A stretch of DNA of 63,794 bases, the filler included, from Stramenopiles sp. TOSAG23-3 (lineage: Eukaryota): NCBI GenBank assembly GCA_900128585.1. It is 9 parts of 9 records of this genome, joined end to end, with 100 filler letters (N's around TTAATTAATTAA, not from the genome) between each part and the next. Parts side by side here need not be neighbours in the genome. Positions count along the whole stretch, not along the records: positions 23,526 to 31,250 come from LT643107.1; 8 more parts are not named here. The stretch is one strand, 5' to 3'. Numbering within the stretch: the stretch's first letter is position 1; each line of letters begins with the position of its first letter. The notes below the pieces were generated by a model, which was not told the DNA's origin, did no database searches, and was given only the letters and a program-made list of their open reading frames with translations. The position numbers and the translations under genes are program-made. Below are positions 19,378-54,220 of the stretch, piece after piece.

Positions 19378-22300
19378 TCAATCGTACCCGCCTCCGCCAC
19401 GTTTGACTTTTTTTGCTTTCCCCGTAGTGGTCGCATGGATCATCTGCTCCAACGTCGACCATGCGCACGCTGTGTCCGGGCTTGCCGTTGCCACCTCGCT
19501 AATCGAGAATGGGGTGAAGAGCCCGTTGCACCCGGCCGCGTCAGCATTCGTGCTTTCGTCCGAAACCAGAAAAGGCTTGTCCACGCCAGAAGTGTTGCTA
19601 TTGAGAACGGACATTTGCTCAGTCGTCAGTGTCGTGCCATCGGCCGACACCCCGTGCGTTGAGACTAGCGGCCAGAGCGCCAAGCAGGCGGCCGTAAAGT
19701 CTTGGGCGGCCTCCGCCATGCTCTTCCTAATTTTTCGACTCAGGTTTCCAATCCGCTTCTTGTTTCGCAGCAACTGCTTCAACAGGAACGGTTCGTTCAA
19801 AATTTTTGGAAACACCTGGAGTGCAGGGTTGTGGATACCGTAGACCGGAGTCGCCATGGAGGACATGGAGCTGTTTGCCGAGCCACGGCGGGAGCCGCGC
19901 CGGCTCCGCCGGCGACGGTAGTTCTCTTCGTCCGAGTCGTTGTCGTCGTCATCCTCGTCGTCCGAGCCATCCCCGCCGTCTTTCCACGCGGTGTGGGCCT
20001 CGGAAATGCTGCTCCCGATGATGTAGCGGTACACGTACAGCAAGGGAAGGACCTCTTGCGAGCATATCACGGTTGGCGGAAGGGCCGCGATGTAGTTGCG
20101 GGTGTCCGACGTCGTGGGCTCCACGGTCACCTTCATCAAAGGCTTGGCGCCGCCAGTGCCATGTTTCATAAAGTGAGTAAACCGAGAGCCCAGTCCCTTC
20201 CGCCGCTGCATGATATCCCCCGGCCGGATCTCAGCGACTTCGTCCAAACTCCCGCCCTGAACGTCCAGTGGAATCACCTTCTTCGATTTCAACTGCATCG
20301 CCTCCTTCAAGGGCAACGCGCACCAGCCGACGGCTTGGATATAGGTGGCGTCCGAAGTGTCGTGCTTCAGCACCGTGCAGACAAGCTCGAACAGGATGTA
20401 CATGTCCCTGGAGTCTGGGTTGGACGTTTGTACGACCATTTTCGCAGACCCAAGCTTGGTGGTAGAGGTGGTAAAACTCCACTCATCCTCTTTCGAGGTG
20501 GACCAGGACGCCGGGCAAATGTGTTGGTTGCCCACGAACCTGTCCTCGGACGATGCCCCGTCCATGTCGGACGGGTCGCCCCGCATCAAACAGACACGCA
20601 CGGACCGTTTCACGACCTGCTTGCGGTAGTTGTCGTCCGGCACAGGAATCCCAACGGCGTTGTTGAGCTTCAAATGGAACGTAACCGACGAGCTCGCCAC
20701 TTTCCCGGCATTCCAAGGCGTTTTCTTCCCGGTCGATTGGGCGGTGAGCACGTCCCTGGACAGCCCTTCGTCCTGTGCACCGGAGAGTGTGTAGGAAAAG
20801 CTGTGCTGCGGGTTCGAATCTAACTTTGCCAGGACACTCGGTCGGAAATTGGCGGGCATTCCGGCAAACGCCTTCAGGTACTCCCTGGGATCTTCGATGG
20901 GGCCCTTTGAAATTTTTTGGACCGCCCGCTCGGCATCCGCGGACATCACCCGGCTTTGGTTGCGCCCTCCGTTCATCTGCATGTCCTCGACGTCTTTCCA
21001 GAGCTCGTTGAATTCCTCGAACTCAATTGTGCCGCTGCCATCCAGGTCGATCTCTTTCACGAGCGCTTTGAACTCTCGTTGGGAAAGCATGATTCGCATC
21101 CGCTTCCTAATCAAGATGTCAAACTCCGACTCCTCGAGGGAGCCACTCTTGTCCGCATCGATTTCATCAAACAATTCCTGAATTTGCTCTAGAGTGGCTT
21201 TCGCCTTGTCTTTCTGCTCCCGGTGGCGCTGGCGCCCCAATTTGGACTTCATCAACTTTCGGAATGCGTTCTTGTCGATGCTACCAGTTCCACTTTGGTC
21301 CGCATCTGTTATGAGCGCATGCACCTCGTCGTCCGTCGGTGTTTGGCCCATCGCCCGAAGGGCAGCCCCGAGCTCGACGGCGTCGATCAAGCCACTCCCA
21401 TCCGTGTCGATTTCCTTGAACGCCCGTTCGTAGGCCTTGTCCTGGTGCTTCTTGAACCACTCGTCCACAGTTAAATTGTCTTCGTCGTCATCGTCTTCCT
21501 CCTCGCTCTCCTCTTCCTCTTCTTCGCTCTCATCCTCTTTAACAGGAGGCGTTGGTGCGGTCTGTTTGGCCGGCTTCGCTTTCCCCTTTGCCGGCTTCTC
21601 TTTCAGCTCATCGGCGTCGAATTCATCGACCTCCCCATCCTCGTACTTGCCCTTGTAGGTATTGTTCTTGGCGTCGAAGCTGACGATCTCAATTTCTTCT
21701 TCGTCGTCCTCCAAGAGCGCGATGACTGTCTGTCCCGCTTTGAATTTCGCATTGTGGGCCGTCTTTCCCTTCGGCTTCGCCTTCGAAGCATCTTTGGCAG
21801 CCTTCTCATCGGCCTTCTTCTTCTTTTCGGCCTTGTCTTTTTTCGCAGCGTCTTTCGCCTTCTTTGCGTCTTTCTTTGCGTCTTTCTTTGCGTCCTTCTT
21901 GGCGTCCTTCTTGGCGTCCTTCTTGGCGTCCTCTTTAACGTCCTCTTTGGCGTCCTTTGCTTTCTGGGCTTCGTCCTCTACGAAGACGAGGAAGGCCTCA
22001 AAGTCGACTTTGTCTTTCGCGTTTGATCGGAACTTGTTGCAAATGGCCGCTAGCTGGTCCTGGTCGGCGCTCTGAAACCCCGAGTCCAGGAGGCAGTCAA
22101 TAAAATCGCTATCGGCAACAAAGTTGTCTTGGTCACCGGCAATGTCCAAGATATTTTCCTCGAATTCCATCAAGTTCTCCTTGTCGCCGTTCACCCATTC
22201 TATGAGCAAAAGCAGGACAGACTCCCAATACTTGTCGTCGGTCTTCTTCCCCGAATTCTTTGTGGCCTTTCCTTTCTCCTCTTTACCGTTCGCGTCCTCT

Positions 22301-23425
22301 GCAACGTCTTCGACAGCATCCAAAAACTCGTCAAAGTCAATTTCGTCATCGTTGTTCGCATCTAATCTATTCAACAGCCCCGCGACGTCCGAGTCCGTCA
22401 ACGGCAATCCGCACGCATCCTTCAAAAACGCCTCGAAAGACTTTCGGTCCAGAGTGGTTTCCTCCCCGGCCGCAATTTCCCATATATCTTCAATGGAATT
22501 TCCGCGGCGCTCGAACACTTTCACTTTGATTTTCAGCTTTTTTAGAAGGCGCTCCACGTCCGGGCTGGGGTCAATGAAGTACATAAAATCTACAAACGAG
22601 GTCGTGGTATCGTCGACCGAGAAACGTTTCGTGACGGCGTTCAACTCTCCGGTGGATAGTTTGGACGACGGAGAGACTTTTGAAAGTGCTGCTTGGAACT
22701 TCTTGCTCTTCATCGTCCCCTTCGTCAGATTGCCCCCGCCCGCCTTGAACTTCTTTCTCATGAATTCGTTTGCAGATTTAAACTTTTGCTTCGGGCTATT
22801 CTCCTTTTCCAGCTGGTCCGCGATACCCTTTCGAAGCTTTTCGGTGGCTTTCTGAACCACAGAGGCGTCGCTGCCGTGCTTGGCGGACGGGGTGGCAACA
22901 AATATTGCAAAATCTAAAATGTTTATTTTCGCATTTTTGTCGTCCTCCCCAAAGGCGTCCGCGATGCTGGCCCAATCGTCTTCGCTCACTTTCTTAAACT
23001 CTAGTTTGGAGCTCAGGGAGAGGAAGTCTTCCCGGTCCACGACGTTGTCCTTGGCCGTCTTAGAGAACGTCTTCAAAATGTGGGTGCGCACGCTGGCTTT
23101 CTTCGCCAAGGAGATCGCCTTGCCGCTCTTCCACAATCGTTTTCTCAGCCTTTTCTTCAACAATGCGTGCTGTGATTCCTTCTCATCGCCCTCTTCGTCG
23201 CTCTCTTCTTCGCTATCGTTCCCAGAGTCTTCCTCGTCCTCGTCTCCCGCATCGATCTTAATTTTGAGCAGATCGGCAAATTCCACCGGGTCGATTTCGC
23301 CGTCACCGTTTTGGTCGAGTCGCATAACAACGTGCCACGCCAGAGATTCTTCTATGGGGATGTTCTGCGAGTTTAAGCCCTCGATGAATTCCTCGGTGGA
23401 TATTTTCCCGTCCCCGTTCCTGTCG
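19378..23425 (-). CDS. NPHP1: Nephrocystin-1-like protein with many EF-hands and a Tudor-like module; 5' end cut by the contig end
   Basis: EF-hand loops DQNGDGEID, DANNDDEIDFDEF, DTDGSGLIDAVEL, DADKSGSLEESEF and DLDGSGTIEFEEF. The C-terminal IPVP...KRSVRVCL...GNQHICPASW...ILFEL...VGWCALPL...QGGS...LYVYRYIIG...HNPALQVFPKILNEP parallels the NPHP1 C-terminal homology region. The frame is open up to the N gap. Confidence 0.78.
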
Positions 23426-24034: not shown

Positions 24035-24902
24035 TTACCATTTGGGGTTACGCTTTCTCCCACTGTATTTGCTGTTGTGCCGTACCTTTTTCCCTTGGCG
24101 TTCTTGTCTCTCTTTCTTTGCTTGGATCCAATCTCTTGACTTTGGTGCTGCACGTTTAAACTTCCCCTTCTTTCCTTTATACCGTTCTCTCGTGTTTTCA
24201 TAACGAACGGTGCTCTGCTGCCCCCCGTAGTTCCCCTCTCCTGCAAATTCCTTTTCGTCCATCTCCAGTTTTGGTGCTAAATACGTGTGATTTGTACCTG
24301 CAGTTATGGTTAAATAGTACTTTTTAGCTTTTGTGCTGTTCGGAAGGTCGACCACCACCCCACCAGAGAAGCCGCACGCCGTTGCAGCTCTCACGGCCAT
24401 GTTCATTTGCACAGCAGACTCTGGGTAAAACTGAAATACAGCTCTCGCCCCACGAAAAAGTGAGCTGTATAGTTGGGAGAACAGGGCCATAAGTCGCTTT
24501 CGGGGGTTGTGGCACCTTTTACTGGGGTAAAATAGCCATTGGAGCGCCGAAATGCTGATAGCTCCGTCAAATACACCAGGACGAAATGCTATTCCTTGCC
24601 CCATATCTGCCTCCAGAACGTCCCCATCTACTTCCCTATCTACTGCAACGTTCAACATGTCTGGGCTTATGTCCATACCGACCCACTGGTGTCCCTTTTC
24701 AGTAATAATGCTCCCGCTCAAGGCACTTCCGCAACCGATATCTAACAAGAGACTGGATTTGCCTTCGGGTAAATTGAGAAGTTCAATCGCCCGCTCTGTG
24801 ATAACGCTCTGTATTTTTAGCATACGAGTATTTCTAGTATACTTCAAGGCTTCTTTCTCGAGGCGCCGCATACTCTGGGCGCGTTTTGACGTGCCCTGCC
24901 AT
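24035..24902 (-). CDS. BUD23: 18S rRNA m7G methyltransferase BUD23/WBSCR22 with a frameshifting 5' deletion (pseudogene or assembly error)
   Basis: LLDIGCGSALSG, GMDISPDML, DMGQG, FDGAISISALQWL, RAVFQFYPE, PNSTKAKKYYL and KERQERQGKKV...SKYSGRKR. The true N-terminus MAGHVKTRPEYAAP (ATG 24902) is in a different frame from EKEALKY. Confidence 0.9.
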
Positions 24903-25520
24903 AATCCAAAATTTTCTTCTATATAGTTTATGCGCAAATAAAAAATATTCGCAAGAACAGAACCACTCTCGCTCGATTTGACGAAACGATGGGTGTTGGA
25001 CTTTCGGGTTTCCGTACTATCTGTTTTTACATATAGCTTAATCGATCGGCTTGGTGGAGTCTCATTTGGACTGTCAGTTACAGTGCATGTGGTGATATTT
25101 GATTTTTTTTAATTTTTACAGTGGTGGTGGTGGGGTGGTGTAGTATTATTTTTCTTCTTCTTCTGATGAAGAGACTTCGTAGTCTTTGTTGTTCTTTTTT
25201 TTTTTTTATTATTATTATTTTATTACATTATTACAGTAGTATTATTATTATTATATTAAATTTCCATTATACTACTGTATTATTAGTCTTATTATACTGG
25301 TACTGGTACCGTAATATATAATACTGCTGTATTATTTTATTACGTAATATTATTAATAATAATTTATTAGTAATTATTATTACGACATCATCGTCGTCGA
25401 ATTAGTATTATTATATAGCAGAATATATTATTACATATAGTAATTAAAAAAAAGTGATGATGAAATGATGAGAGTGATGATTATGAGATGACGACTTCTT
25501 CCTCGTTTAATGGTGACCAT

Positions 25521-25580: not shown

Positions 25581-26502
25581 AAAGATCTTTGAACTTCTTC
25601 TTGGATTATTTAATTATATGAGATCATGTATTAAACTGTATATTTTATATTTCATTACTAGTCTAGTTACTAGTTTAGTCTATATAATACTACGATATTT
25701 CATTCCCAATGGATACCGTGTAGTACGGTAGTACGGTAGAACGGTACGGAACAAATTGTTTTTTTTAAACACTTTGTCCATTATTTTACATAGTCTAATA
25801 TGATGATTGATGATTGATGCAGAGAAAAAATAAAATAATTACTGTACAGTATTATATTACTAGGACTATTAAATATTATAAAAAAACTAACAAAACAACA
25901 GCAGCTGCTTCTCTCGCTCTTCTTCTTCGCGATTATTAGAACTATTGTATAATATATTTATAATACCGTATATTATTTACCGTATTACATTACATTAATC
26001 TCTTCTTCGCGCAACATCTTTTTATTCCTTCCTCTCCTCTAATATAAATACGATATTTATTTATATATAATACCAAGGAACGGTACTTGTTTGGTAGTAG
26101 AAATAATAATAATTGTCACATCATCTCTTGTCTCTTGTCACACATAATTAAATACCACCACCAAGTATTATTAGAGAATTGTTATTTAAAAATACTACCA
26201 AGGTTGGTAGTAGTGTGTGTAAAGTAGATAGAAGTAGCAAATTTCCCCCGTAATAATACTTCATCAAATTATTACTCTCGCGACGAGATGATTTCGATCT
26301 TGCCATGTTGCCATATTGCCTCTGCGTTGAAAACCTCCAAACCTGTAGGCCCAACATAACCCCACGCCATCTCGTTTCTCAAGCACAGCTTCTGTAATTT
26401 TAAGAAACCCTGTACTTAAGGCATTATTGCGGCACGAAATAATCGCGCGTAGTGTTCGGCCGCATGTAAACGGATAATACAATATCTTGGCTTGGACAAT
26501 AC

Positions 26503-28431
26503 ATGGAACGCAGTGCGCCAGGTGGCTGCAAACGGCGTCGTTTGACCGCGGGAACGCCCAGCCACCGTCTTCTTGCATATTTGCACGAGGAATATGGCTG
26601 CTCTAACACGCATGTGTACATAGGAAAATCCTCTTTAGGGGGGAACGGGCTGTTTCTGGATGAAAATGTCGAACGGAACACGAAAATTTTGACTATTCCT
26701 TTACAACTCCTAATTACTGAGGAACTGGCACTGAATTCTGACGTCGGCCGAGCTGTAAAGGAAACTTTCGGGGACAATATTCCGGGCCGCATTATTTTGA
26801 TCTTATATTTGCTGCATATAAAGCATGCAGTTGCGTCAGATCCCACGCGTGAAAGCCGTTGGGCAGAATACATCGATTCGCTGCCGAGAATGTACAGCAC
26901 TCCCGTATTTCTTGCAAATCAAGGGGAGGACGACAGAACCCTCTCGCGCCTCGAGGGCACAGCTGTCGGTGCCCGGGAATACCGTCGACTAGAACAAATG
27001 AAAAGTACGTACACGGCGCTTTTCCCGACCTTGAGCAGGATGCACCCGCTGCTTTTTGCTGAATGTGCATACACATGGGATGCGTATTTATGGGGGCATA
27101 CGACGGTAGCAACAAGGCTGTTCCCGCCAACGTTTTCGATTCCGAACAATCAAAACGCAGAGACAGTGTCCGACGGACCTGGCGGCAGGACAAGACGCCC
27201 AACAGTGGTGCCCGGTGGTTGTTTGATTCCTTGCGCGGACATGTTGAACCACCAGGCAGGCAGTCGATTGAAATGGAGCACGGACAACCTTTGCCTGTAT
27301 GCGCATTCTACACGAAATATGGAGAGGGGGGAAGAAATTGTGTTCAGTTACGGAGACGAGAAGAGTAATGGGCATTTGCTGGTGACATATGGGTTTACGA
27401 CGCCTTTTAACACCCATGACGTGGTACCTCTAAATTTTTTGCCTCTTGGTACGCCTTGGCTCTCAACGTACCATGAAGACGGCACAGTGCCGAATCGCCT
27501 CTCTGAAATTGGAAAACGTCTGGGCCTTGCGCCAGTTGTAGCTTCTTGTAAGTGTTCGGGCAGTCCTGTTGAAATTTCTCGCTCGTTGCTAATGACCACT
27601 GCGCGTTTGTACTCGAGCAAAAACATCAGGGAAGCCTGTGCTGTTGAAGAGTTTGCGCAGGTTCTTTCGGTACAACTGGAGGAACAAGCGGTGATCTACG
27701 CCAAGAAAATTGTCGATACGGCCATGAGCAAAATGCAGAATCTGTCCGCATTTGATTCAATAGATGGAGATGCGCGGTTTGAGAGTTTTGGAAAGCACGA
27801 CTCTATCACATGGTACTTGCACGGCCAACTTCAGTCTTTGCGGCATACCATGGCTCTCCTGAATGTACACGCGGGTACATTGCAAGACACACGCAAAGGA
27901 CTGGAGCGTACTGGTTCATTTTCCATACATCGTACACACATGCGAATGGCTTTAGAACAAGCCAGGTATGCCCTCCGCGTCGGTGAAGTTCCTGTAGGCT
28001 GTGTGTTCGTAAGGGAGGGGGTGATTGTCGCCACTGGTCACAATAAAACGAACGTCACCTGCAACGCTACTCGACACGCTGAATTAGTAGCGTACGACAA
28101 AAGTTTCGTTGCCAGTGGGCAAAATCCCAAAGTCTTGGAAAACAGTACACTTTATGTTACCGTAGAACCCTGCATAATGTGCGCAGCAGCGCTCCGGGCA
28201 TGCGGCGTTAAGGCTGTATTTTTTGGGTGCCGCAACGACAAGTTCGGTGGAAACGGGTCAGTGCTTTCGCTCCACAAGACAGGTGCAACGGGTTTCACTG
28301 CAACGTCACAAGGATACGTTGTTACTGGAGGTATATTGGAACAAGAAGCAATTCATATGCTCCAATCATTTTACGAAAGAGGAAACACGAAAGCGCCGAA
28401 GCCCCAACGGAAAGTTGCAAAAGTGTGCTGA
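26503..28431 (+). CDS. ADAT2: Fusion of a SET-domain methyltransferase (SETD3/SETD4/Rubisco-LSMT class) and tRNA adenosine-34 deaminase ADAT2/Tad2
   Basis: SET part: GGNGLF, WAEYIDSLP, LIPCADMLNH, GEEIVFSYG, SNGHLLVTYGF. Deaminase part from about 27940: GEVPVGCVFV, NATRHAE, LYVTVEPCIMCA, GCRNDKFGGNGS, FYERGNTKAPKP. One uninterrupted 642-aa frame. Confidence 0.9.
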   Translation: MERSAPGGCKRRRLTAGTPSHRLLAYLHEEYGCSNTHVYIGKSSLGGNGLFLDENVERNTKILTIPLQLLITEELALNSDVGRAVKETFGDNIPGRIILILYLLHIKHAVASDPTRESRWAEYIDSLPRMYSTPVFLANQGEDDRTLSRLEGTAVGAREYRRLEQMKSTYTALFPTLSRMHPLLFAECAYTWDAYLWGHTTVATRLFPPTFSIPNNQNAETVSDGPGGRTRRPTVVPGGCLIPCADMLNHQAGSRLKWSTDNLCLYAHSTRNMERGEEIVFSYGDEKSNGHLLVTYGFTTPFNTHDVVPLNFLPLGTPWLSTYHEDGTVPNRLSEIGKRLGLAPVVASCKCSGSPVEISRSLLMTTARLYSSKNIREACAVEEFAQVLSVQLEEQAVIYAKKIVDTAMSKMQNLSAFDSIDGDARFESFGKHDSITWYLHGQLQSLRHTMALLNVHAGTLQDTRKGLERTGSFSIHRTHMRMALEQARYALRVGEVPVGCVFVREGVIVATGHNKTNVTCNATRHAELVAYDKSFVASGQNPKVLENSTLYVTVEPCIMCAAALRACGVKAVFFGCRNDKFGGNGSVLSLHKTGATGFTATSQGYVVTGGILEQEAIHMLQSFYERGNTKAPKPQRKVAKVC

Positions 28432-29300
28432 AGTAATGATCGCGCCTAATGGTAGGAAGGCGGGGCAATTTTCAAAAAGAAACCGAAAACGCTATTCAGA
28501 AATTTGTTTGCCCAAATGTCCATATTTTTTACGGCAATGAAAAAAAACATTAATATAGTATGTATACTTAGGTACCTCTCTTTTACAAAAATTAGAATTT
28601 GTTTTAAAATTTGTGCAGCGGGTGAAAGATCTTTTACGATTTAATTAAATAAATTTAAGTACACTCGTAATTTAAAAAAATACGCATCAAAGTAAGAAAC
28701 ACAAAAGACAAAAAACAAATTATAGGGATAACGTGGAAACGGATTATACAGGTAACTCCGAGATGAGTATTAAACAAGCGATTTCCCCGCAGGGGTCTCC
28801 AAAACTTGGACAACATTTTAGGGAATTTGATAATCTATCGCCCCCAACATCACAATAGTCGAACAGATCCAGGCAATCAAAAACAAATATAGCCGCTCTT
28901 TGAACTTTGGTAAAAATGAGGAGACTGATTCTCCAAGTAACTCTGTTGGGTCCGAAGAAGTGATTTACTCACAGGAGTCTCCAAAGAGGGGCGAAACTTT
29001 CAGGGACTTTGACTGGGAGAACAATCGATTTGTTGAATACAGATCCCCTTTTCTATAAAAGAAAAAAACACTATTACTATAGGAAAACAATCTTAGATTT
29101 CGAAGAATCGATGACTGATAGTAAGTGAGCGTCTTAAAGCATAATATGATACTATATATAATATGTTTTTTTTAAATTCTTTTTGTTGATGTTATGAATA
29201 CAAAACAAAATTAGTTGTTTGTTAATTTATAAGAAATGAAAATTTATTTTCCTCATCATGTACCGCGAAAATGAACCTGCCCCTTTTGTCCATTCCAATC

Positions 29301-29938: not shown

Positions 29939-31250
29939 AAGTCCAAGAAAGGACTGAAGAAAAATGCATGGACTTCCTTTGACTTTGCAAACCACAACTC
30001 GTATGGTGGGGGCACATTTCCTAATATATACGCAGCATTCGCGGGGTTTCAGGTATACAGCAAAAGTGCATTTCCCAACACTGCCGCGGAAGATTTAGAA
30101 CCCAGGCCGTGGTGGCTCTTAGGCTCAAAAGGCAACCGCTTTGCTACGTTCTACTCTACAATGTCCGTCCTACAAGGACTTTCGTTTGGACCAGAAAACC
30201 ATTTTGATTTTAGTGACGTGCAAAACGCAGCCGACGTCGTATTGCGGGAGGCTGTGAGCCTAAATGCAGGCTATTATGGATACGAGCCATACAACGACAT
30301 CTACTCAAAGCACTGTTTGGGGGGTAAAGCTGCCCCGAATCATGTTTTTGAGTATTTAAGACAATTCACCATTGCGGCCACAACACCAGAGGTGCCGTTT
30401 TCTGGCACAAACAGAAGACGAGGAATTGCACAATGGCAATCTTCTGAATGCCCGTATGATCGATGAGCCATTAACGAAGTTCTTGGAAAATATGGAAAGC
30501 GATGGCAGAGGTACTGATACTATTATTATTATAAATGCAGATCACGGTCCGCGATATGGTGGTAGTCAAGACCATGATATTCTCGGCCACCTGTACAACA
30601 TCAACCCTGTCCTTCGCGTATTGTTACCACAGTCACTGTTGGAAAAATATGGGGAAATTTTGGCGGACAACCAGCGGCTGATTACTCAATTCTTAGACTT
30701 GTATGCAACCTTGCGCCATCTGGTCGAAGATGGAAGCACAGGTATGCACTACCGCACCAATAGCAGCATGTGGAGAAAACCGCAGGAGGGGAAAAGTTTG
30801 TTTCGAACAATAAAACCAAACCGAACATGTATCGAGGCGGGAATTAATGAAGTTCGGTGTACCTGCGCTTTTGGCCCCAAGAAAATAATCCTGTCAAATA
30901 GGGTTGGAAGGGAGGTCCAATTGCCGAATGAGTTTTTTAAGATTAAGGAAAGATTAAAAGCCCTCTCCGAGATGCAGTTGTGGCATTTGGGTGGCAATGG
31001 AAAAATTCTGGGGTGCAAGCAGCCCCATTTTAAGCAGATCGATCGGTTAGAGGTTCAGCGTCCACACAAAGATGCTGTAGGGGAGAATGGAGCAGGGCAA
31101 TACACGTTCGAAATGTGGTTCGAGATGGGGACTTTAATGCTTCTACGGCCCTTGCAGGGAGACGGAATCATAAAAGCAATTACATTATCTCCCTGGATCG
31201 GACGACGCCCATGCCTAAATCGTGCAAAGATGCTGTTGCCGCCGCACCGA
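29939..31250 (+). pseudogene. DUF229/sulfatase-like (alkaline phosphatase superfamily) gene remnant; 5' part missing, frameshift near 30375, cut by the contig end
   Basis: FANHNSYGGGTFPNI and CLGGK...VFEYLRQF lie in one frame; DEPLTKFL...IIIINADHGPRYG...NQRLITQFLDLYATL...GKSLF...RTCIEAGI...CTC lie in the next. Confidence 0.7.
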
Positions 31251-31350
31251 NNNNNNNNNNNNNNNNNNNNNNNNNNNNNNNNNNNNNNNNNNNNTTAATT
31301 AATTAANNNNNNNNNNNNNNNNNNNNNNNNNNNNNNNNNNNNNNNNNNNN

Positions 31351-52990: not shown

Positions 52991-54220
52991 CTATCTCCAT
53001 TTGGCATGCGAATTTCTGGCATCATCTGTTCTGTTTCTATCACTATGATCGGCAAACTTACCAGTGACAGACCCAGCTTCATCGTACATCAGTTCAAACT
53101 GCCCGATCCTTCGTTGGGCAACGCCTGTCGCATGGGACCTGTCCTTTACGTCGATGTAATCGTCGTCCGGGACGACGACACGAAAGATATCATTGATCAG
53201 CTTGTGCTTCATGACTCGGTCGCTGTGGGTCGTTGCGGAGAGGGACGGGGATGCATTTATTTCAATCAACCACGACTTTAGGTTGTCGTCCACCAAAACA
53301 TCGTACCCGTAGCATTCAAAGCAGTGTTTGTCGTTGATCACGACCGATTGGACGGATTTCAACGACAGCAAAATGATCCGCTCGATGTCTTCGAAGACTT
53401 GGGCGGCGCGCTCTTGGCCAAACTGTCCTTCTATGTACAGTCGAAAATTGCGTAGCGACCATTTTCCCCCGTGCTTGTCGTTGTAATCGTCTGCCTTTGT
53501 CTGAATCGACACGTTCGTCAAGTGCATGAACATGTTGTCTAAGTTTGCATTGTCGTTCGAGTATCGCGCACCACTGAACCGGCAAAACCCTTCCCTGTAC
53601 ATGTACACCCGGAGCGGCCGGTACGAGGTGACCAGCGCGTACAGGCGAAGGTCGAATTTTTTCCCACCAATCAGGAGGGGGTTGTCCAAGTACCGGGAGA
53701 TGACGTAATTGTCCCGCATGGATCCGGAGGCCCACTTGTTGTTCGCCCACTTTTTTATTTGACTAAGTTTGTTCACTATAAAGATACCTATCCCGCGCGC
53801 TTTGGACGTTGGCTTCATGATCCAGGTCGTGTTCGGGCGCCTTCGAAACTCTTCCACGAAGAGCGAGTAGTCCGCCGGCAACATGTACGTCGTCGGCACA
53901 AAAAGCGGGACGTGCAGGCCTTCCTTCGCCAGTTCCTTTGCGTAGCGTTTGATGTTCTTGACCATCAAGTCCTTTCTCGTCAGCTCGTAGTGGTTCGGGA
54001 AGTGGTTGAGGATTTGGCGGTCGTTCAGTCGGTACCCGTGGTCTGGGTTGAATATGTGCTTGACCGTGTGGACCGACGCCCAGTAGACGTTCCAATCTTC
54101 GTCCGACTGCGTTTTCACCCACTCTCGCCTCTCAAAGTTGGACGTCAAACACCCTTTCTCCATGTCGGTCCTCCACTTTATCGTCGAAGACCCATAATTG
54201 CTCGAATACCTCCGGTTCAT
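52991..54220 (-). CDS. TTLL1: Tubulin polyglutamylase TTLL1
   Basis: KWRTDMEKGCLTSNFERREW...DWNVYW...GYRLNDRQILNHFPNHYELTRKDLMVKNIKRY; WIMKP; KFDLRLY; FECYGYDV; WLIEINASPS. Confidence 0.93.
   Translation of the reverse strand: MNRRYSSNYGSSTIKWRTDMEKGCLTSNFERREWVKTQSDEDWNVYWASVHTVKHIFNPDHGYRLNDRQILNHFPNHYELTRKDLMVKNIKRYAKELAKEGLHVPLFVPTTYMLPADYSLFVEEFRRRPNTTWIMKPTSKARGIGIFIVNKLSQIKKWANNKWASGSMRDNYVISRYLDNPLLIGGKKFDLRLYALVTSYRPLRVYMYREGFCRFSGARYSNDNANLDNMFMHLTNVSIQTKADDYNDKHGGKWSLRNFRLYIEGQFGQERAAQVFEDIERIILLSLKSVQSVVINDKHCFECYGYDVLVDDNLKSWLIEINASPSLSATTHSDRVMKHKLINDIFRVVVPDDDYIDVKDRSHATGVAQRRIGQFELMYDEAGSVTGKFADHSDRNRTDDARNSHAKWR

Follow-up and report, generated by a model that had tools for sequence, protein, structure and literature searches.

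The stretch of DNA examined here, which we call the window, covers 63,794 nucleotides of the assembly GCA_900128585.1 of Stramenopiles sp. TOSAG23-3 and is made of parts of nine records of that genome joined by filler letters. We will focus on one of its genes, carried by the record LT643107.1, which encodes in a single reading frame a SET-domain methyltransferase followed by the tRNA deaminase ADAT2. ADAT2, or Tad2 in yeast, is the zinc-dependent subunit that deaminates adenosine 34 (A34) of tRNA, and it is normally paired with ADAT3. The wobble inosine that results (I34) is essential for decoding in eukaryotes, and to our knowledge very little has been established on the regulation of ADAT2/ADAT3 or on the proteins that partner with it. 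The SET-ADAT2 fusion is a real conserved gene, present in this marine single-celled eukaryote and in at least four diverged relatives.

The gene is found on the plus strand as one uninterrupted open reading frame (ORF), which runs from its ATG through 642 codons to a stop, between positions 26503 and 28431. It is closed upstream by an in-frame stop at 26467, the nearest one 5' of the ATG. In the protein of 642 amino acids (aa), a Pfam scan detected SET at aa 47-284 (E 2.2e-5, 25.3 bits against a cut-off of 22.4, profile positions 1-105) and, in the C-terminal part, dCMP_cyt_deam_1 at aa 476-576 (E 5.5e-22) and MafB19-deam at aa 476-589 (E 2.2e-24). A first reading, made from the sequence alone, had described a stop-free frame of 642 aa that holds a SET domain, a helical region and a full ADAT2 domain with intact HAE and PCxxC motifs. 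Its coordinates are exact to the base and both motifs are intact, while translation, Pfam and the matches to solved structures bear out the layout, the helices being seen in low-confidence models only. The features of the locus are collected in the table.

Table. Features of the SET-ADAT2 locus (positions along the window; invariance is counted over seven aligned fusion proteins)
Feature	Positions	Strand	Evidence
Probable 5' leader of the transcript	26306..26502	+	RNA-library contigs X15 (26306-26475) and X16 (26469-26623); GC content rising from about 0.30 to 0.43-0.46 from about 26200; stop at 26467; weak evidence, as contigs cannot show a transcript start
SET-ADAT2 fusion ORF, 642 aa, stop included	26503..28431	+	Translation; relatives of 657-721 aa; continuous ORFs in L001 and L002
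SET methyltransferase domain, aa 36-310, SETD3/SETD6/LSMT class, with large insert	26608..27432	+	Pfam; PDB profile matches; 49-58% identity to relatives
F207, at the position of SETD3 Asn255 (Phe in SETD6 and LSMT)	27121..27123	+	Alignment; invariant 7/7
A245-D-M-L-N249-H250: Ala at the position of SETD3 Trp273, then the SET 'NH' cofactor-binding motif	27235..27252	+	Alignment; A245, N249 and H250 invariant 7/7
Y283, conserved SET catalytic tyrosine (SETD3 Tyr312)	27349..27351	+	Alignment; invariant 7/7
Poorly conserved, probably helical region between the catalytic domains, aa 311-470	27433..27912	+	21-26% identity; low-confidence models
ADAT2/Tad2 deaminase domain, aa 471-642	27913..28428	+	Pfam; PDB matches; 45/45 conserved columns
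H525-A526-E527, zinc ligand and catalytic glutamate	28075..28083	+	Translation; invariant 7/7
P556-C557-I-M-C560 (PCIMC), zinc-binding PCxxC motif	28168..28182	+	Translation; invariant 7/7
ADAT2-type basic C-terminal tail ERGNTKAPKPQRKVAKVC	28375..28428	+	Aligns to the C-terminal regions of yeast Tad2 and human ADAT2

The fusion is not restricted to this genome. A search with the full-length protein returned four other clusters built at 90% identity, whose members of 657, 671, 718 and 703 aa cover 96-99% of the query with 43-47% identity, so that the same architecture does occur elsewhere. In this search, six proteins were found at E <= 0.001 among 8000 scored candidates, the sixth being a SET-only protein, and the sequences of the fusion relatives come from metagenome gene calls and one EukProt set. 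In addition, a scan of metagenome contigs led to the confirmation of two of 208 pattern matches, L001 and L002, which carry uninterrupted ORFs of 669 and 721 aa respectively, both with SET and deaminase Pfam matches. A stop separating two genes in the relatives would have spoken against a fusion, and none interrupts these two frames. A word search with the SET region found only the same five fusion clusters and P0006. The best 150 matches of a library search with the fusion profile included no full-length fusion protein, and consisted instead of fragments, two SET-only relatives and stand-alone ADAT2s; none of the 10 longer matches from that search that were scanned combined SET and deaminase. 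The ESM Atlas gave for the fusion protein only weak leads to SET clusters (score 0.80). The stretch itself is present in 20 of the 24 public runs listed, 14 of them with half or more of the sampled words, and nearly all are labelled as marine or seawater metagenomes.

The alignment of seven fusion proteins (A1) shows how unevenly the protein has diverged. Between the window protein and its relatives, the SET domain is 49-58% identical and the deaminase 55-61%, against 21-26% for aa 311-470, and all fifteen catalytic and pocket positions checked in the two domains are invariant in the seven proteins (G47, G49, R205, F207, A245, N249, H250, F281, Y283, H525, A526, E527, P556, C557 and C560). The high identity of both domains compared with the linker, together with the invariance of the catalytic residues, indicates that purifying selection has acted on both catalytic domains over a deep divergence. 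All the relatives aligned preserve the linker and the frame.

As for the deaminase half, aa 476-640 matched the solved structures of yeast Tad2 (7bv5, 4.9e-36), human ADAT2 (3dh1, 3.5e-35), mouse ADAT2 (7nz7, 1.8e-34) and Trypanosoma brucei ADAT2 (8aw3, 1.8e-28), and the same single-sequence search gave bacterial TadA at 3e-22 or weaker and ADAT3 at 1.4e-9. A profile made of the fusion proteins only ranked the PDB chains in the same way, with Tad2 at 2.1e-47, human ADAT2 at 2.5e-44 and T. brucei ADAT2 at 8.8e-40, followed by TadA (5.6e-25), ADAT3 (3.3e-14) and cytosine deaminase (7.5e-9). Among 118 stand-alone ADAT2s of 160-350 aa (without P0194), 45 alignment columns reach a conservation of 90% or more; in the last 185 residues of the seven fusion proteins, which were aligned with them, every one of these columns is identical. 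The alignment of the C-terminal tail, compared in all seven, reaches through FYERGNTKAPKPQRK to residue 176 of Tad2 and residue 186 of human ADAT2; this region of ADAT2 is reported to assist tRNA binding (PMC6382703). In a quick IQ-TREE phylogeny of 126 rows (119 stand-alone proteins of 150-350 aa and the seven fusion domains), the fusion deaminases and P0194 form one clade within eukaryotic ADAT2, with a support of 97 in the SH-like approximate likelihood-ratio test (SH-aLRT). Such a clade agrees with a fusion that arose only once; its neighbours are unnamed metagenome ADAT2s, followed by Viridiplantae, with weak support (81-89). The fused deaminase thus reads as the ordinary ADAT2/Tad2 of its lineage, presumably with an ADAT3 partner.

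It could also be read as a neo-functionalised paralogue, in which case the housekeeping ADAT2 would be encoded elsewhere as a small gene, and the SET domain would retarget the fused copy to chromatin-associated DNA, to mRNA or to another tRNA position. It is reported that ADAT2/3 can deaminate DNA and that in T. brucei, jointly with a methyltransferase, it works on a second site of tRNA (PMC6382703). The public library also contains other ADAT2-like proteins with an N-terminal extension, in which the deaminase is preceded by an AAA_33 kinase-like domain (P0056, 410 aa), by VPS9 (P0166, 1198 aa) or by MRP-L20 (P0145, 335 aa), some of which may be merged gene models. We nevertheless consider a paralogue improbable, since the highly conserved ADAT2 columns and the ADAT2-type tail are kept in the fusion proteins, and since the identity of the window deaminase to canonical ADAT2s of other kingdoms (47-59%) is as high as that among the fusion proteins. 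The best named matches, at 47-55%, are stand-alone ADAT2s from green algae and land plants, from fungi and oomycetes, and from cryptophytes. Moreover, the search for shorter proteins, with its 7264 matches, gave no closer stand-alone ADAT2. Its only two closer short matches are both fragments: P0194, of 59% identity, is truncated by its contig (170 aa on 569 bases), and P0066, of 75% identity, is a 139-aa piece that starts in the linker before the deaminase domain.

The SET half belongs to a class that can be recognized from solved structures. Indeed, aa 47-310 matched SETD3 (4.8e-9), SETD6 (4e-8) and the Rubisco methyltransferase LSMT (2.6e-6), and the fusion-only profile matched SETD3 from 3.2e-15 (wild type) to 6.2e-17, SETD6 at 3.2e-10 and LSMT at 1e-9. 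The chain that scored best among SET chains, in all three sequence searches, was 6V62, an N255F/W273A double mutant of SETD3. Residues F207, A245 and Y283 of the window protein align with Asn255, Trp273 and Tyr312 of SETD3, and the rank of 6V62 is explained by the fact that the fusion family has Phe at the first of these positions and Ala at the second. SETD6 and LSMT, which methylate lysine, carry Phe and Ala at these two positions of the pocket (Dai et al. 2019, PMC6684798), and the SETD3 double mutant, numbered N256F/W274A in a review, is described there as having a 13-fold preference for lysine (PMC8537074). In the seven fusion proteins, the residues of the SETD3 histidine pocket, Asn255 and Trp273, are absent, F207 and A245 standing in their place. 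With this Phe/Ala pocket and with the NH and Tyr motifs kept, the SET module looks most likely like an active methyltransferase of lysine rather than histidine, as judged from its residues. Where the sequence-only reading had proposed a SETD3/SETD4/Rubisco-LSMT-type SET acting on lysine or histidine, we keep the class, as SETD3/SETD6/LSMT, and the lysine; the histidine alternative falls with the pocket. The SET gene also occurs unfused in other organisms, as indicated by two proteins from a library-wide profile search: P0045 (495 aa, 232 bits, 36% identity over the SET domain), which is the closest stand-alone SET relative and carries no deaminase, and P0096 (310 aa).

Downstream of the SET domain, the similarity to known proteins fades. 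The hhalign match ends at aa 310, and the PDB profile match reaches only residue 391-397 of SETD3. That reading had also called for a profile scan with SET, the deaminase and the Rubisco-LSMT substrate-binding domain: the first two were found, while PF09273 (Rubis-subs-bind), with a limit of E <= 0.1, matched neither the window protein nor any of the four relatives scanned (4/4), the control P0006 scoring 2.9e-14. A few residues of aa 311-470 are still invariant among the seven fusion proteins, namely W437, Y438, G441, Q442, H448 and T449. The region is probably helical, according to two AlphaFold models of low confidence. In the N-terminal one, the post-SET region is made of helices, with a predicted local distance difference test (pLDDT) mostly of 25-60. 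Foldseek searches with this low-confidence model of aa 1-475 ranked SETD3, LSMT, SETD6 and the plastid protein pTAC14/PAP7 first, at template-modelling (TM) scores of 0.38-0.47, and the alignments spanned about 490 columns at TM 0.46-0.47 with a root-mean-square deviation of about 15 A.

This lack of detectable similarity to the LSMT substrate-binding domain is what would speak for a SET module that is no longer enzymatic, and that would rather be a scaffold, used in binding tRNA, in localisation or in dimerisation, or would take over the function of the ADAT3 N-terminal domain. Yet the seven proteins, whose SET domains are only 49-58% identical, all keep GxG, NH and Tyr283, as well as F207, A245 and F281 of the pocket, a pattern expected of an active enzyme, and we give the scaffold little chance of being right.

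As for expression, contigs of four RNA-library runs, from four studies, were placed on the window. Such contigs lie on parts of both halves of the ORF, and four of them (27868-28280, 27845-28380, 27865-28015 and 27773-28247) bridge the ATG at 27940, starting 72-167 bases upstream of it, so RNA-library sequence does cross the junction, as had been proposed for verification. Three stretches, 26000-26302, 26808-27009 and 28525-28827, have no cover in any of the four runs and are not used as evidence. Farther downstream, at 28860-28998, contigs of two runs pile up at a higher depth of 12-62 with 10 mismatches, 2 gaps and loose ends; this is probably a conserved gene segment from related organisms and not from the present one.

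The ATG at 27940 encodes M480, and it is conceivable that the gene gives two products, the fusion being one isoform and the other a stand-alone ADAT2 made from an internal promoter or by internal initiation at this codon. M480 lies just before the first deaminase helix and aligns with Met7 of yeast Tad2, so that a product starting there would be a complete ADAT2, and transcript starts are not visible from contigs. However, this methionine is an internal conserved residue in 97% of the 118 stand-alone ADAT2s and is not per se a start signal, the RNA contigs extend upstream of it, and the frame and linker are preserved in all relatives. The base composition points in the same direction. The content in guanine plus cytosine (GC) is 0.45-0.555 over the whole ORF and 0.475-0.51 at the junction (27400-28000), with no promoter-like AT-rich stretch before 27940, and it drops to 0.25-0.33 on both flanks, as in other intergenic stretches of the window. 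GC thus stays high across the junction and falls only on the flanks, which indicates that the ORF contains no intergenic-like spacer. A second product of this kind seems quite unlikely to us.

That the fusion is an artefact, due either to a stop between two neighbouring genes being lost through an error of sequencing or assembly or to a chimeric contig, has a negligible probability: the window does contain 704 N (span 7745-62618, taken as assembly gaps) and one neighbouring gene apparently split between two frames, but no N falls within 26503-28431, the fusion is retained in diverged relatives including the continuous ORFs of L001 and L002, and the same 642-aa frame stands on 12 contigs from ENA, JGI and NCBI. 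Those contigs make up the window's own cluster, with seven full-length, near-identical 642-aa sequences (P0001, P0007-P0010, P0013 and P0014), the last six of which differ from the window by 2-5 residues each, all within aa 125-451.

The explanation that we favor for the whole, with reasonable but far from complete confidence, is that of a two-enzyme protein in which an ordinary ADAT2 and a catalytically competent lysine-type SET domain couple methylation to wobble-inosine formation. In such a protein, the C-terminal 172 residues would convert A34 to I34 in tRNA anticodons, presumably with ADAT3, and the N-terminal 310 residues or so would act as a SET protein methyltransferase with a lysine-type target pocket, the fast-evolving helical region serving to tether one to the other. 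The SET domain may then methylate a lysine of a protein that the fusion keeps nearby. Candidate targets would be ADAT3, the lysine-rich tail of ADAT2 itself, a tRNA-associated translation factor or a ribosomal protein, and the fusion would in this way tie lysine methylation physically to the making of wobble inosine. In yeast, ribosomal proteins and eEF1A are methylated by several enzymes of this SET class. The idea of a target near the editing enzyme gains weight from a SET-Tad3 fusion that appears to have arisen independently in basidiomycetes: with SET also fused to Tad3, a functional link is likelier than a chance juxtaposition.

Several points nevertheless count against this two-enzyme explanation. 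The methylation target is pure conjecture, and the SET-Tad3 fusion is likened to ours through its published description, so that the parallel may be superficial. On the side of expression, no single RNA contig of the four runs extends from the SET domain into the deaminase, RNA contigs can neither show transcript starts nor exclude an internal transcription start, and RNA libraries may contain DNA; the bridging contigs are thus consistent with a single mRNA and do not prove it. The AlphaFold model of the whole protein has a mean pLDDT of 54.4, and that of aa 1-475 a mean of 56.7 with a predicted TM score (pTM) of 0.52, both too low for the arrangement of the domains or the fold of aa 311-470. 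Finally, the 118 stand-alone ADAT2s of the column comparison were picked as best matches to this very domain, which favors agreement.

A broader version of the two-enzyme explanation can be put forward, although we find it doubtful: the SETD3/SETD6-like lysine methyltransferase family and ADAT2/ADAT3 would be functional partners in eukaryotes generally, as two independent 'Rosetta-stone' fusions, SET-Tad2 in this marine protist clade and SET-Tad3 in basidiomycetes, would betray. The formation of wobble inosine would then be controlled by lysine methylation, either of an ADAT subunit, for instance on the lysine-rich tail with which ADAT2 binds tRNA, or of a translation factor bound to tRNA, and stand-alone SETs such as P0045 would do the same job elsewhere. 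In any case, the conserved fusion names a concrete candidate partner of ADAT2, an apparently active protein lysine methyltransferase, and suggests that protein methylation and tRNA editing may be linked in a way not yet explored. If its target were found, this could reveal a methyl-lysine control point on tRNA editing, and could tell what an orphan branch of the SETD3/SETD6/LSMT family does.

The rest of the window is that of an intron-poor eukaryote, with genes on both strands that are richer in GC than the spacers, among them genes for dymeclin, TTLL1, a DUSP-UCH hydrolase and a FERM-IQ protein; no tRNA gene was found in the window. Upstream of SET-ADAT2, on the opposite strand, lies a Bud23/WBSCR22-type methyltransferase gene (24035-24937, minus strand; Pfam WBS_methylT 2.7e-15, and Methyltransf_11), so that a gene of the RNA-modification type adjoins the fusion gene. 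At 19378-23325, on the minus strand, a protein of 1314 aa has weak Tudor-like matches and, in its central part (aa 632-777), several pairs of EF-hands, its other regions being unassigned. Downstream, the apparently split gene is of the DUF229 family (29939-31298, plus strand; Pfam 3.8e-22 on 30372-31295) and occupies two overlapping frames, 29939..30466 and 30360..31298, its translation entering a run of N at the 3' end, which points to an intron, a frameshift or a fault in the assembly. In L001, it is a Kelch/EGF protein that follows the fusion gene. Farther away, a gene of the tubulin-tyrosine-ligase family (52991-54220, minus strand; Pfam TTL 2.6e-93) has TTLL1 polyglutamylase subunits as its nearest Atlas clusters (score 0.98), which suggests a flagellated or ciliated organism.

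The SET-ADAT2 protein can be compared with four known systems. It shares with the ADAT2/Tad2 of solved structure (7BV5, 3DH1 and 8AW3) the same deaminase domain, with HAE and PCxxC, the basic tail and the 45 conserved columns. However, known ADAT2s are small, most of the best 150 library matches being of 165-320 aa, whereas here the domain is preceded by an N-terminal extension of 470 aa made of the SET domain and the helical region. With SETD6, LSMT and SETD3, it has in common the NH motif, the catalytic Tyr and a SET domain split by a large insert. By sequence as well as by fold it matches SETD3 best, but the fusion SET lacks the Asn255/Trp273 histidine pocket of SETD3 and has the Phe/Ala pocket residues of SETD6 and LSMT. 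It differs from all three by having no detectable Rubis-subs-bind domain and by being joined to a deaminase.

The third system is that of T. brucei, in which ADAT2/3 works physically with the methyltransferase Trm140 (PMC6382703). The sequence-only reading had invoked it as a precedent, along with the deamination of DNA, and both are reported as it stated (PMC6382703, PMC5733570). The likeness lies in a methyltransferase that physically works with ADAT2/3; but Trm140 is a separate RNA methyltransferase that makes 3-methylcytidine (m3C), whereas here a SET-type protein methyltransferase is covalently fused.

The closest parallel is the fourth one. The architecture had been thought undescribed, and this holds for SET-ADAT2 itself: our literature search found no description of SET-ADAT2 or SET-Tad2, and neither 'fused' nor 'SET' occurs in a 2024 review on ADAT (PMC11802342). 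It does not hold without a near-precedent, since the only work that we found on the topic, that of Iyer et al. 2011, whose supplementary architecture tables might list more, reports basidiomycete proteins, e.g., CNBC2910 of Cryptococcus, in which the partner subunit Tad3 is fused to a SET domain (PMC3239186). For this SET-Tad3, they proposed the methylation of editing proteins or a new base modification, and they describe Tad3 as lacking the Glu of HxE (PMC3239186). Among our short-protein matches, the basidiomycete Tad2s are stand-alone proteins of 183-203 aa, so the SET-Tad2 and SET-Tad3 fusions appear to be independent. In both cases, an N-terminal SET domain is joined to a subunit of the same ADAT2/ADAT3 enzyme. 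There, however, it sits on the inactive partner, which has no catalytic Glu, whereas here it sits on the catalytic Tad2-type subunit, in which E527 is present and for which the fusion profile scores Tad2 far ahead of ADAT3. We thus rate the novelty of the SET-ADAT2 gene as that of a canonical ADAT2 with a new conserved enzymatic appendage, which parallels a known fusion on the partner subunit.

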